Positions 3,072-13,339 are shown, counted from the stretch's first letter. The stretch is 16,502 nt of DNA from a virus (IMGVR_UViG_2648501669_000019), one strand, 5' to 3'. Numbers and translations are program-made. Notes: generated by a model from the sequence alone, not told the origin.

Positions 3072-3140
3072 GAGACCCGGCGGGGGAGAAATCCCTCGCC
3101 ACCTCTGATGTGGCAGGCATCCTCAACGCACCCGCACTTA

Positions 3141-3166
3141 ACCCGCTTCGGCGGGTTTTTGTTTTT
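3141..3166 (+). terminator. Rho-independent terminator of the relB-relE-hokD operon
   Basis: acccgc-ttcg-gcgggt stem-loop followed by tttttgttttt. Confidence 0.6.
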
Positions 3167-3287
3167 ATTTTCAACGCGTTTGAAGTTCTGGACGGTGCCG
3201 GAATAGAATCAAAAATACTTAAGTAGCGCGCAGGGATAAGAGGGATGGTCCCTTAAAGGGGAGAGCTAATTATCCGGAAGGATTCTG

Positions 3288-3539
3288 ATGATGAACATCG
3301 AAGAACTGCGTAAAATTTTTTGTGAAGATGGCCTCTATGCTGTGTGCGTTGAAAATGGAAATCTTGTTAGTCATTACCGCATTATGTGTTTGCGAAAGAA
3401 TGGGGCTGCGTTAATTAATTTTGTGGATGCTCGGGTCACGGACGGATTTATCTTGCGCGAAGGTGAGTTTGTCACTTCATTACAGGCATTGAAAGAGATC
3501 GGAATAAAAGCTGGCTTTTCTGCTTTTTCAGGAGAATAA
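3288..3539 (+). CDS. rem: Rem, small prophage protein of unknown function (83 aa)
   Basis: 83-aa translation MMNIEELRKIFCEDGLYAVCVENGN... ; GGAAGG Shine-Dalgarno upstream. Confidence 0.8.
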   Translation: MMNIEELRKIFCEDGLYAVCVENGNLVSHYRIMCLRKNGAALINFVDARVTDGFILREGEFVTSLQALKEIGIKAGFSAFSGE

Positions 3540-3605
3540 ACTCATCTACAATCTTGCGCGGGGCTGAACTCCCGCTGAGTAACACCGTGCCACCGGAGAA
3601 AACCG

Positions 3606-3884
3606 ATGGCACGCAACGCAAAATATTACAATTCTGATAATTCGCCCGTTCTTGCCTGCACGCACGGGCGGTATTCTCACGCATTCAAGTCTGAATGGTT
3701 CCAGCACCCTCCATGCACTGCAGAACAGGCCGAATGGCTGATTCATTCTTACCGCAGGCGCGGGTTCGAGGTTAAGAAAGCTCTCAGTCTCGACTATCGG
3801 CACTGGATAATCTCTGTCAGGCTGCCTTATTCCGAACGCCCACCACGTGCGTCCCGCACTTTCCAGCAACGGATCTGGAGGTAA
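3606..3884 (+). CDS. Hypothetical 92-aa prophage protein, translationally coupled to ydfU
   Basis: ORF with a GGAG Shine-Dalgarno about 10 nt upstream; its stop (3882-3884) lies inside the ydfU ribosome-binding site. No family assigned. Confidence 0.45.
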   Translation: MARNAKYYNSDNSPVLACTHGRYSHAFKSEWFQHPPCTAEQAEWLIHSYRRRGFEVKKALSLDYRHWIISVRLPYSERPPRASRTFQQRIWR

Positions 3885-10237: not shown

Positions 10238-10408
10238 TTTGATGCTATTGCATTGATAATTCAGGAAAATTCTCTTTGTCTGTTTGTGTAAAATTTAGAC
10301 TATCGTATGTTGATTATTGCGATGTTTCATCTTATCTTTTACACGTTTGCACCATATAATCGACTTACTGTGTAACTGGAAAGTCATAACAGACTAAAAG
10401 AGGAAATG

Positions 10409-10582
10409 ATGAATATTGAAAACTTAAAAACAAAAGCAGAAGCAGATATTTCTGAATATATAACAAAAAAAATTATTGAACTTAAGAAAAAGACCGGGAA
10501 AGAAGTTACCAGTATTCAGTTTACCGCACGGGAAAAAATGACGGGTCTTGAAAGCTATGATGTCAAGATTAATTTAATCTGA
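10409..10582 (+). CDS. gnsB: GnsB (Gns family small protein, 57 aa)
   Basis: Translation MNIENLKTKAEADISEYITKKIIELKKKTGKEVTSIQFTAREKMTGLESYDVKINLI; AGGAAA Shine-Dalgarno upstream. Below the ORF-track cutoff. Confidence 0.85.
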   Translation: MNIENLKTKAEADISEYITKKIIELKKKTGKEVTSIQFTAREKMTGLESYDVKINLI

Positions 10583-10634: not shown

Positions 10635-10733
10635 ATATTTGAATGGTTCCGAATATCTAAATCACAATTGTTGATGGTTTTTATTAAACCAATGCAGTCC
10701 GGCTCAGGAGTGAGAGAAGCCGGACGTTATGGT

Positions 10734-11144
10734 TTAGCGTGGTAAGATCTGTGTAGTTTTCTGGATGCTTTCAGTAAATAGTAATGAATTATCAAAGGTA
10801 TAGTAATATCTTTTTTGTTCGTGGATATTTGTAACCCACCGAAAAACTCCTGCTTTAGCAAGGTTTCTTCTGTATTCCTGAAATGTGATCTCTCTGGATT
10901 TCAGCTTATTAGAGGTCGTTTCTATAAGATGCCTATCCTTTGAAAATTTGACAGACACAATGTTTTTTAGGCCCTTTAATAACACTGTATTATCATTTTT
11001 TAATACAATATGAACATTCTCTGTGGCTAAATAATAAATGTAATGTGAGACATTGTGACGTTTTAGCTCAGAATAAAACCATTGATAGTTTAAATCGTTT
11101 CGAACTTTATCAAATATTTGTTTAAAAATGACTACCTGATCCAT
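10734..11144 (-). CDS. ydfO: YdfO (DUF1398), 136 aa from the ATG at 11144 (ORF track start 11159)
   Basis: GGAAGG Shine-Dalgarno precedes the [13 protein letters not shown] start; lies 57 nt downstream of ynfO on the same strand. Confidence 0.8.
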
Positions 11145-11201
11145 AGATAAACCTTCCATGTGATATGAGGGGGCGTAGTCTGCACGATTATCTAAATTGC
11201 T

Positions 11202-11435
11202 TCAATCTGGTCTGACCTGTTTTCTGAGCAATTCAGTAATGTCACTCTTTTCTTTGTTTGCTTCAGAAGAAACTCTTTTTTCTGAGCACAGTCTCCGGCG
11301 GCAGGCTTCAATGACCCAGGCTGAGAAATTCCCGGACCCTTTTTGCTCAAGAGCGATGTTAATTTGTTCAATCATTTGGTTAGGAAAGCGGATGTTGCGG
11401 GTTGTTGTTCTGCGGGTTCTGTTCTTCGTTGACAT
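11202..11435 (-). CDS. ynfO: YnfO, small basic protein with a ribbon-helix-helix-like N-terminal region (77 aa)
   Basis: Translation MSTKNRTRRTTTRNIRFPNQMIEQINIALEQKGSGNFSAWVIEACRRRL... ; Arg-rich N-terminus and a beta-strand/helix pattern reminiscent of CopG/Arc-type DNA binders. Confidence 0.65.
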   Translation of the reverse strand: MSTKNRTRRTTTRNIRFPNQMIEQINIALEQKGSGNFSAWVIEACRRRLCSEKRVSSEANKEKSDITELLRKQVRPD

Positions 11436-11559
11436 GAGGTTGCCCCGTATTCAGTATCGCTGATTTGTATTGTCTGAAGTTGTTTTTACGTTAAGTTGAT
11501 GCAGATCAATTAATACGATACCTGCGTCATAATTGATTATTTGACGTGGTTTGATGGCC

Positions 11560-11820
11560 TCCACGCACGTTGTGATATGTAGATGATAATCATTATCACT
11601 TTACGGGTCCTTTCCGGTGATCCGACAGGTTACGGGGCGGCGACCTCGCGGGTTTTCGCTATTTATGAAAATTTTCCGGTTTAAGGTGTTTCCGTTCTTC
11701 TTCGTCGTAACTTAATGTTTTTATTTAAAATACCCCCTGAAAAGAAAGGAAACGACAGGTGCTGAAAGCGGGCTTTTTGGCCTTTGTCGTTTCCTTTCTC
11801 TGTTTTTGTCCGTGGAATGA
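11560..11820 (+). other. Lambda-type cos site: cosQ-like region, cosN (11635-11646, GGGCGGCGACCT) and cosB upstream of the Nu1 homolog
   Basis: Near-identical to the phage lambda genome ends as I remember them (...GATCCGACAGGTTACG | GGGCGGCGACCTCGCGGGTTTTCGCTATTTATGAAAATTTTCCGG...), continuing into the Nu1 start. Confidence 0.8.
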
Positions 11821-11823
11821 ACA

Positions 11824-12081
11824 ATGGAAGTCAACAAAAAGCAGCTGGCTGACATTTTCGGTGCGAGTATCCGTACCATTCAGAACTGGCAGGAACAGGG
11901 AATGCCCGTTCTGCGAGGCGGTGGCAAGGGTAATGAGGTGCTTTATGATTCTGCCGCCGTCATAAAATGGTATGCCGAAAGGGATGCTGAAATTGAGAAC
12001 GAAAAGCTGCGCCGGGAAGTTGAAGAACTGCGGCAGGCCAGCGAGACAGATCTCCAGCCACCCGCGCTACGGCATGGGTAA
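11824..12081 (+). pseudogene. nohQ: Truncated terminase small-subunit (Nu1) homolog: the N-terminal ~80 residues only
   Basis: MEVNKKQLADIFGASIRTIQNWQEQGMPVLRGGGKGNEVLYDSAAVIKWYAERDAEIENEKLRREVEELRQASE matches the lambda Nu1 N-terminus; homology stops near 12063 and the frame ends after a few unrelated codons. Confidence 0.8.
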
Positions 12082-13339
12082 ACGTCTTGGTGCGGCAGAT
12101 GTGGATAAATGGGCGCTGTATGTCATCGGCCAGTGTTGCGACCAGTCGGTGCCGGACGGTTTTGGCGGCACGGAGCCGCGCATCACCTGTAATGCCTGGC
12201 TGACCACACAGCGTAAGGCGTGGGATGTTCTCAGTGATTTCTGCTCGGCGATGCGCTGTATGCCGGTATGGAACGGGCAGACGCTGACGTTCGTGCAGGA
12301 CCGACCATCAGATAAGGTGTGGACCTATAACCGCAGTAATGTGGTGATGCCGGATGATGGCGCGCCGTTCCGCTACAGCTTCAGCGCCCTGAAGGACCGC
12401 CATAATGCCGTTGAGGTGAACTGGATTGACCCGGATAACGGCTGGGAGACGGCGACAGAGCTTGTGGAGGACACGCAGGCCATTGCCCGTTACGGTCGTA
12501 ACGTCACGAAGATGGATGCCTTTGGCTGTACCAGGCGGGGGCAGGCGCACCGAGCCGGGCTGTGGCTGATTAAAACGGAACTGCTGGAAACGCAGACCGT
12601 GGACTTCAGCGTGGGTGCCGAAGGGCTTCGCCATGTACCAGGTGATGTCATTGAAATCTGTGATGATGACTATGCGGGGATCAGCATCGGCGGGCGCGTG
12701 CTGGCGGTGAACAGCCAGACGCGGACACTGACGCTCGACCGTGAAATCACGCTGCCATCCTCCGGCACCACGCTGATAAGCCTGGTTGACGGGCAGGGTA
12801 ATCCGGTGAGCGTGGAGGTCCAGTCCGTCACCGACGGCGTGAAGGTGAAAGTGAGCCGGGTTCCTGACGGCGTTGCCGAGTACAGCGTGTGGGGGCTGAA
12901 GCTGCCGACGCTGCGTCAGCGCCTGTTCCGCTGTGTGAGTATCCGTGAGAACGATGACGGTACGTATGCCATCACTGCCGTGCAGCATGTACCGGAGAAA
13001 GAAGCCATCGTGGATAACGGGGCGCACTTTGACGGTGACCAGAGCGGCACGGTGAATGGTGTCACGCCGCCAGCAGTTCAGCACCTGACCGCAGAAGTCA
13101 CCGCAGACAGCGGGGAATACCAGGTGCTGGCGCGCTGGGACACGCCGAAGGTGGTGAAGGGGGTGAGCTTTATGCTTCGCCTGACCGTGGCAGCGGACGA
13201 CGGCAGTGAGCGGTTGGTCAGCACGGCCCGGACGACGGAAACCACATATCGCTTCACGCAGCTGGCGCTGGGAAATTACAGGCTGACAGTCCGGGCGGTA
13301 AATGCATGGGGACAGCCGGTGCACATACCCATTCGATGA
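12064..13339 (+). pseudogene. Internal fragment of a lambda J-like tail-tip protein (about 420 aa), fused out of frame to the Nu1 remnant
   Basis: The 455-aa ORF (11972-13339) matches the central part of lambda gpJ as I remember it (...DRPSDKVWTYNRSNVVMPDDGAPFRYSF...RAVNAWGQ). Its first ~30 codons are the Nu1 region read in another frame; it has neither the J N- nor C-terminus. Confidence 0.75.

Follow-up and report, generated by a model that had tools for sequence, protein, structure and literature searches.

The adjacent genes ynfO and ydfO occupy positions 10,734 to 11,435 of a viral DNA of 16,502 nucleotides (IMGVR_UViG_2648501669_000019), referred to here at its full length as the window, which its sequence identifies as a Qin-type cryptic lambdoid prophage of Escherichia coli. 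The explanation that we find the most probable, with some reserve, is that they are independent accessory genes joined by a mosaic junction and not a dedicated pair, in which YnfO would be a ribbon-helix-helix (RHH) regulator and YdfO the product of moron cargo. The gene ynfO represents the YlcI/YnfO (DUF3950) family in lambdoid phages of E. coli. The first ~50 residues are the functional unit of its product, and the gene is a fixed part of the packaging-proximal late region, where it runs opposite to the late operon and diverges from a small-terminase or HNH gene. The gene ydfO is AT-rich moron-type cargo encoding a cytoplasmic DUF1398 protein, and the two genes assort independently.

A first-pass annotation of this DNA had described two co-oriented genes about 57 bp apart and antisense to the late genes, in an accessory slot between the lysis genes and cos; both open reading frames (ORFs) were found as described, and the pair is flanked by the lysis cassette and cosN. 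The toxin-antitoxin or defence module that was also suggested there finds no support in gene adjacency, in protein fold or in the PADLOC search.

Distribution and origin of the gene pair

The neighbourhoods of both genes were surveyed in two arbitrary IMG/VR samples drawn with degenerate peptide motifs (NFSAWVIE for YnfO and GVFRWVT(N/D) for DUF1398). These scans replaced a related-locus search with a DUF1398 alignment, which gave near-identical Qin copies only, and the loci were classified by tblastn with the reference proteins. The samples are motif-selected, not random, and phylogenetically clumped, with many relatives of E. coli prophages; their fractions are rough and their direction is clear. 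On the downstream side of 70 YnfO loci a DUF1398 gene was directly next in 17 and followed a homologue of lambdap79 (p79) in 7, and 46 were without DUF1398; a DUF1398 gene lay within 2 kb of YnfO in 24 of the 70. Seen from the other side, 55 DUF1398 loci comprised 22 of the Qin type, 15 of the lambda type and 18 without YnfO within 2 kb, these last mostly adjoining a DUF1441-type gene. YnfO was present at 37 of the 55, and it was the direct neighbour at 22 of them. A check of co-occurrence had been set beforehand, and the answer is that the two genes largely do not occur together as a unit, given the 46/70 and 18/55 loci at which one is found without the other. On the upstream side, 64 of 65 YnfO loci were divergent from a packaging gene, either a Nu1-family small terminase subunit gene (TerS; 52 loci) or an HNH gene plus TerS (12 loci).

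The same picture is given by other collections. Deposited phage genomes hold DUF1398 in 43 records and YnfO in 155, and in many prophages YnfO is the sole gene between Rz and TerS. In Shiga toxin (Stx) phages it stands alone, 41-42 bp from the HNH gene and beside HNH-TerS-TerL (the last being the large terminase subunit gene). More distant DUF1398 relatives (25-46% identity) stand alone in chromosomes, with metabolic, fimbrial or regulatory genes around them; one, of the ycgX type, adjoins bluR/bluF, and no small upstream partner was seen for these genes. A third arrangement was also observed in IMG/VR and E. coli O103 loci (L136, L259-L301), in which DUF1398 and a lambdap79-like gene stand beside a DUF1441-type gene without YnfO; there lambdap79 accompanies DUF1398 more steadily than YnfO does.

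A wide host range suggested by a contig scan with the YnfO alignment was rejected. The non-Escherichia matches were nearly all 98%-identical lambda DNA on contigs of ~3.5 kb or tiny ones, and they were read as contamination with lambda control DNA and therefore as carrying no taxonomic information. Lambda right-end DNA (98%) was observed in assemblies of unrelated taxa, together with error-rich ~3.5-kb ENA contigs (L013-L047; P0012-P0120, P0134-P0240). This contamination by a sequencing control is read as inflating the apparent host range of both families.

The origin of the tandem arrangement was approached by comparing the window with lambda by blastn and by searching the phage collection with both proteins by tblastn. 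The DUF1398 gene of lambda is lambdap78, whose product is 79% identical to YdfO. Lambda also has a 64-aa homologue of YnfO at 48109-48303 (-), 199 bp from the right cohesive end and unannotated in NC_001416, which is 98% identical to YnfO residues 1-54. In lambda these two are separated by lambdap79 on the opposite strand, and the ybcV-ybcW-ylcI layout of DLP12 is the same, with the opposite-strand ybcW between. The right ends of lambda and DLP12 thus share with Qin the orthologous genes and the slot between Rz/bor and cos, and differ in having lambdap79/ybcW where Qin has 54 bp. Two blocks of homology frame this difference: window 10715-11218 corresponds to lambda 47023-47527 (84%) and window 11273-11634 to lambda 48141-48502 (98%). 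As the second block ends at 11273, only residues 1-54 of YnfO are common with lambda. Residues 55-77, the Qin tail, are read partly from the junction and partly from sequence located upstream of lambdap78 in lambda. The 54 bp present instead of the lambdap79 module thus give YnfO a different C-terminal tail and place the genes in tandem. Among Qin-type loci the nucleotide identity of ynfO with its tail is at least 95% even between lineages with ydfO genes 20% apart, and since ynfO is conserved while ydfO diverges, a mosaic boundary is placed at the ynfO stop codon. The GC contents of ydfO (31%) and of the ynfO N-domain (49%; 45% for the whole window) agree with this boundary. On this comparison, the adjacency of ynfO and ydfO corresponds to the absence of the lambdap79/ybcW module, and the locus is a lambdap79-less allele of the lambda right end. 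According to a 2026 preprint, lambdap79 triggers the Vulcan NADase defence, and lambda-vir escapers lose lambdap79, probably via recombination with the Qin prophage of MG1655 (bioRxiv 10.64898/2026.09.04.749371).

These observations bear on the idea of a type II toxin-antitoxin or abortive-infection pair, in which the C-terminal tail of YnfO, as an RHH antitoxin, would neutralise YdfO in an autorepressed operon. We consider this very improbable. Adjacency is conserved in neither direction (17/70 and 22/55 loci), an opposite-strand gene lies between the two genes in lambda and DLP12, and DUF1398 is solitary in chromosomes. The YnfO tail, itself partly encoded by the junction, is identical across YdfO alleles that differ by 25% in protein, and its DNA is at least 96% identical across ydfO alleles 20% apart in nucleotides; it shows no co-variation with its supposed partner. 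A 233-aa database protein with both domains (P0002) was rejected as a gene fusion: the in-frame TGA stop of ynfO had been read as Trp, and the apparent YnfO-YdfO fusion is not real.

The YnfO and YdfO proteins

YnfO matches PF13132 DUF3950 (E 2.7e-21, 75.6 bits, cut-off 25) and NCBIfam YlcI_YnfO_N (NF041551; 36.6 bits, cut-off 30). Its domain is composed of a basic N-terminal arm (residues 1-13), an extended NIRFP segment and two helices (19-32 and 34-50). Hardly any variation is seen in residues 1-50 between lambda-type and Stx-type phages, and each arrangement type has a wholly different tail. Among 39 distinct alleles of codons 1-50 the mean synonymous difference (pS) was 0.43 and the mean non-synonymous difference (pN) 0.044, with a pN/pS of about 0.10, in which only the eight residues of the sampling motif carry a bias towards conservation. 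Variable sites fall 12/11/38 on the three codon positions, and the segment is clearly coding. Moreover, homology between lambda-type and Stx-type contexts starts at the ynfO ATG, which therefore points to selection on the YnfO protein. By these measures residues 1-50 are under strong purifying selection.

The AlphaFold2 (AF2) monomer of YnfO has an extended segment (11-18) and two helices (19-32 and 34-55), with a predicted local distance difference test score (pLDDT) of 73-87 over residues 11-50 and of 52-55 in the tail. The RHH-like pattern noted in the first-pass annotation stands as far as the model has the strand-helix-helix topology, over ~45 residues, although sheet pairing of the strand cannot appear in a model of the monomer; the scores that should accompany such a likeness are weaker. 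The nearest structural neighbours include RHH proteins (ParD, MazE of Mycobacterium tuberculosis and KacA) with scores that are not significant. With hhalign, YnfO 11-33 was aligned onto Arc 8-30, NIRFP falling on NLRWP in the expected register, with E 0.0024 and a probability of 12%; the Arc sequence was checked against PDB. Searches of PDB and Pfam with YnfO profile hidden Markov models found no RHH family, and because of this and of the weak scores the RHH fold of the N-domain is called only probable.

The Arc and Mnt repressors of phage P22 are among the closest likenesses. They are of similar small size and show the strand motif N-x-R-(F/W)-P followed by two helices in register, and Mnt is also encoded by a small repressor gene within a late region, transcribed against its neighbours. 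YnfO differs from them in its long Arg/Thr-rich arm and in that no sequence or structural score is significant; its binding to DNA is something that we infer. The RHH antitoxins named above resemble YnfO in being among the nearest neighbours of its model and in being encoded upstream of a larger gene. They differ in that the partner of YnfO is not conserved and does not have a toxin fold, and in that its tail does not co-vary with the partner.

YdfO had been described as a domain of unknown function, and it indeed matches PF07166 DUF1398 over its full length (1-119 of 119; E 1.7e-46, 157.5 bits, cut-off 22). It equals PDB 2HH8 save one residue, a small soluble protein solved by nuclear magnetic resonance (NMR) with an orphan alpha+beta fold, a 2x(alpha-alpha-beta-beta-beta) pseudo-dimer. 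The suggestion that it might be a nuclease or another toxin fold fails here, as no resemblance of the 2HH8 fold to either was found. Residues L32, T46 and G104 are invariant among relatives down to 24% identity and are not of catalytic types; R20, Y40, N48, A101, W108, R117 and Y119 are nearly invariant. These conserved residues may form a binding surface rather than an active site. Databases name the protein 'head protein' (PHROG 413 and the RefSeq record of lambda) or 'putative envelope protein'. Both labels were rejected, given the small soluble NMR structure, the unchanged plating on lambdap78 knock-down and the lack of a hydrophobic N-terminus, the last read from the sequence by eye and not with a predictor.

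The proteins themselves thus give the toxin-antitoxin idea little to build on. The orphan fold of YdfO does not resemble a toxin and its conserved residues include no catalytic ones, neither protein matched a defence family in PADLOC-DB 2.0 at E <= 1 or a toxin-antitoxin Pfam family, and an over-expression clone of ybcV grows. That clone, from the ASKA collection, was scored for an altered glycogen phenotype, which indicates that over-expression is tolerated (PMC2853380).

The phenotypes reported for YdfO and its relatives are indirect. Knock-down by CRISPR interference showed lambdap78 to be non-essential and left plating unaffected (PMC10695390). Expression of ydfO was induced 116-fold by ionic liquid in a study that also used its cloned promoter region (PMC4077768); the same study cites a rise in oxidative-stress resistance on over-expression of YdfO, a second-hand statement that was not found in the main text of Wang et al. 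2010. In addition, ydfO is differentially expressed after DicC induction, ybcV is up-regulated in a sabinene-adapted strain and ydfO was lost in one phage-resistant mutant of avian pathogenic E. coli (APEC). The report that ydfO is 'essential only by TraDIS' (transposon-directed insertion-site sequencing; PMC5821084) was judged more likely to be an artefact of an AT-rich gene with paralogues.

The gene ydfO has what is expected of a moron, namely a deviant GC content (31% against 45% for the window) and absence from 46 of 70 otherwise similar loci. It shares with bor and other lambdoid morons the slot, the strand, the low GC and the presence or absence among related phages; bor encodes a lipoprotein with a known phenotype, whereas YdfO is cytoplasmic and without one. 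It could be argued from this that YdfO alone is a prophage fitness, exclusion or counter-defence factor, a classical moron to which YnfO would be irrelevant. The AT-rich, presence/absence polymorphic cargo is in line with such a role, as are the induction by stress and the second-hand oxidative-stress resistance (both from PMC4077768), the up-regulation of ybcV on adaptation to sabinene and the loss of ydfO from the resistant APEC mutant. Nevertheless no phenotype of YdfO has been assigned to a mechanism, PADLOC gave no defence-family match and chromosomal DUF1398 homologues stand in non-phage contexts, and we regard this account as unlikely on its own. It is compatible with the explanation by independent accessory genes and not opposed to it.

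Candidate control sites and the packaging region

If ynfO and ydfO are independent genes brought together by the junction, the following mechanism may be proposed. The YnfO domain would fold as an RHH dimer with a basic N-terminal arm and bind DNA via the ribbon residues T12, N14 and R16, equivalent to Q9, N11 and R13 of Arc. YnfO would most likely be a small transcriptional repressor in the divergent control region, which would autoregulate its own leftward promoter and thereby set transcription into the downstream cargo on the same strand, in Qin-type phages ydfO. For YdfO the most likely role is that of a binding protein without enzymatic activity, which responds to stress and is not toxic.

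Several points weigh against this explanation. Qin-type adjacency is frequent (17/70 and 22/55 loci), the constant 27-residue Qin tail has a weakly predicted helix and is compatible with an antitoxin-like tail, and the non-toxicity of YdfO rests on indirect evidence; because of these three points the toxin-antitoxin or defence reading keeps a small probability. Moreover, the IMG/VR samples were drawn by motif and many of their loci are related E. coli prophages. No upstream sequence is common to the Stx-type and lambda-type contexts, and no operator was identified. Finally, a scan for consensus sigma-70 promoters called no site for ynfO or ydfO, and for this reason their co-transcription and autoregulation are put forward conditionally.

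The layout of the locus is given in Table 1. The segment 10600-11800 matches many E. coli chromosomes at 99.8% identity, in which the genes are annotated as ydfO (DUF1398) and ynfO (YlcI/YnfO family). The annotated order is essD-ydfR-rrrQ-rzpQ-cspI-ynfQ-ynfR-ynfN-gnsB on one strand, ydfO and ynfO on the other and then nohA, so that the pair is opposite to essD-ydfR-rrrQ-rzpQ and to nohA, between the lysis cassette and cosN. RefSeq starts ydfO at Met6, which has a GGAAGG Shine-Dalgarno sequence 7 nt upstream, whereas the upstream ATG of the longest ORF is preceded by CCCCCTC. As the spacing of GGAAGG is right and most homologues start there, Met6 is the better start. The gap to ynfO is then 57 bp, or 42 bp with the longest ORF, and the reading frame is common to both. 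The gene nohA is divergent from ynfO with the start codons 389 bp apart, and the -389 spacing recurs among IMG/VR loci. The Nu1 reading frame of nohA is cut after ~80 residues, and the ORF that comes next has tail-tip J-like sequence (11824-13339), a deletion scar that makes Qin defective.

The ynfO promoter must lie between ynfO and cosN, a region that contains a conserved palindrome and an 8-mer. The palindrome closely resembles a Fur box, the consensus of which we take to be GATAATGATAATCATTATC. The 8-mer is -35-like for the divergent strand, and its reverse complement CACGTCAA was observed upstream of ynfO at -113 in 97 of 118 distinct lambda-type regions; it is variable in the other 21 and absent from the Stx type. 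A weak terminator-like hairpin with a T-run was also noted at 11395-11415 (+), on the late-gene strand and inside the 5' coding region of ynfO. The hairpin past the ydfO stop, where gnsB and ydfO converge, might serve as a terminator, although it has no clear T-run; a consensus terminator scan did not call it and returned only weak terminator-like sites. At the other end of ydfO, a genomic SELEX (systematic evolution of ligands by exponential enrichment) table for K-12 lists a PdhR-box-like site, AAcaGGTcagACCAgaT, between ynfO and ydfO (PMC7660256), which equals the palindromic site found at the ynfO stop. This PdhR-type site may be a host input into ydfO expression.

Table 1. Features of the ynfO-ydfO locus (window coordinates) and of related satellite control regions (coordinates of each locus)
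Feature	Position	Strand	Remarks
gnsB	10406..10582	+	Convergent with ydfO; cargo on late strand; Pfam GnsAB_toxin, E 3.3e-35; annotation
Hairpin GTCCGGCT-N13-AGCCGGAC	10697..10725		Just past ydfO stop, between convergent gnsB and ydfO; read from sequence; possible terminator
ydfO	10734..11144	-	DUF1398; 136 aa from Met6; 31% GC
ydfO, longest ORF version	10734..11159	-	141 aa
ynfO	11202..11435	-	77-aa ORF
ynfO codons 51-77 + stop	11202..11285	-	Variable C-terminal tail of Qin-type arrangement; partly junction-encoded; lambda homology ends 11273
ATCTGGTCTGACCTGTT with GGTC-T-GACC palindrome	11205..11221		At ynfO stop, upstream of ydfO; equals PdhR-box-like SELEX site
Mosaic junction	11219..11272		54 bp replacing 613 bp of lambda (47528-48140) with lambdap79; blastn, lambda annotation, ORFs
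ynfO codons 1-50	11286..11435	-	DUF3950 / YlcI_YnfO_N domain; Pfam, NCBIfam, pN/pS, AF2; in 98% nt identity block to lambda 48141-48502
ynfO-to-cosN intergenic region	11436..11634		Must hold ynfO promoter; conserved with lambda right end
8-mer TTGACGTG (reverse complement CACGTCAA)	11541-11548		-35-like for divergent strand
Palindrome TGATAATCATTATCA, perfect 7+7	11584-11598		~40 bp to the left of cosN; conserved upstream of ynfO in lambda-type phages
cosN (GGGCGGCGACCT)	11635..11646	+	Lambda right-end homology stops at 11634 = lambda 48502
nohA, truncated (Nu1 small terminase)	11824..12081	+	Pfam Phage_Nu1, E 1.4e-48, model positions 1-81 of 164
Palindrome-bearing control region, L360	5808-6000		Between YnfO-like gene and primase operon
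Palindrome-bearing control regions, L362 and L365	5784-6000		Between YnfO-like gene and primase operon
Palindrome-bearing control region, L003 (Pmp7)	3154-3500		Between YnfO-like gene and primase operon

The position of ynfO could also be explained by an action on the packaging module itself, in which YnfO would repress stray terminase transcription in the lysogen or bind near cos to modulate its cleavage, ydfO being an unrelated passenger. This would account for the divergence from TerS or HNH genes of at least three types in 64 of 65 loci, for the fixed 389-bp spacing between ynfO and Nu1 with cos between them and for the extreme conservation of the protein, and the palindrome TGATAATCATTATCA, a candidate cos-modulating site beside cosQ, is conserved together with TTGACGTG in lambda-type upstream regions. 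However, YnfO is nearly invariant across phages with differing terminases and cos sites, and in the Stx type only 41-42 bp of unrelated DNA lie upstream of its gene, so a cos-specific target is unlikely. To our knowledge no accessory DNA-binding factor has been reported for lambda cos function besides integration host factor (IHF) and terminase. In satellites, moreover, the family heads a replication operon instead, and a packaging role is given a low probability.

YnfO-like genes of satellites and wider meaning

The weakest match among the phages was the Pasteurella element Pmp7, in which a YnfO-like ORF at 3501-3680 (+) is antisense to a 224-aa 'transcriptional repressor' coding sequence (CDS) at 3083-3757 (-). 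The annotated CDS is probably a mis-call, the YnfO-like ORF being better supported. A search with this ORF yielded 42 YlcI/YnfO proteins, 35-44% identical to YnfO, from Pasteurellaceae, Morganellaceae, Yersinia, Serratia, Salmonella, Klebsiella, Erwinia, Pantoea and Gilliamella. Residues I15, R16, F17, P18, I25, F37, S38, W40, V41 and C45 are invariant in this comparison. In six genera the gene lies within an int-alpA-...-primase island resembling phage-inducible chromosomal islands (PICIs), in some cases with capsid genes. It is the sole opposite-strand gene of these islands, 160-220 bp divergent from an operon of small ORFs ending in primase, and no DUF1398 neighbour was found in them. YlcI/YnfO proteins have also been listed among the accessory genes of capsid-forming PICIs in a 2026 survey. 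Four satellite control regions each contain two or three GGTG-N6-CACC-like palindromes with the look of an operator array. The 8-mer CACGTCAA was seen in all four as well, a post hoc observation (chance about 0.006) that is not used as evidence.

This arrangement, which may link the YnfO-like satellite genes to repression, recalls Stl/Rpr of Gram-positive PICIs, since the satellite gene stands alone, divergent from the replication operon and with repeated palindromes in the control region; such a divergent layout has been described for rpr/stl (PMC6092414). The difference is that YnfO-like proteins are far smaller and not homologous to Stl, and their role as repressors is one that we infer. 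In Gram-negative PICIs control is reported to rest with the activator AlpA, and a repressor is not known (PMC6092414). A broader proposal, speculative and rather improbable in our estimate, would be that YlcI/YnfO is an unrecognised class of very small RHH regulators of lambdoid phages and Gram-negative PICI-type satellites, heading packaging or replication operons from the opposite strand. The family could then be the missing satellite repressor, and phage copies could mediate helper-satellite cross-talk or silence the packaging end of the prophage.

As the genes and their families are already catalogued, the novelty is limited to the probable fold assignment of YnfO and to the context rules. 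A new toxin-antitoxin or defence pair would have been notable, and the evidence goes against it. Database labels of DUF1398 as 'head protein' or 'putative envelope protein' are corrected. In their tandem order the two genes represent a form of the lambda right end without lambdap79, and the 2026 preprint ties this allele to escape from Vulcan via recombination with Qin. The YnfO domain of 50 residues, encoded 200 bp from cos and missing from the annotation of the lambda reference genome, keeps company with the packaging genes, and few accessory sequences of E. coli lambdoid phages are under constraint as strong. If the YnfO family is indeed a family of repressors, it would provide a testable handle on the control of the packaging end of prophages and on the silencing of Gram-negative satellites.
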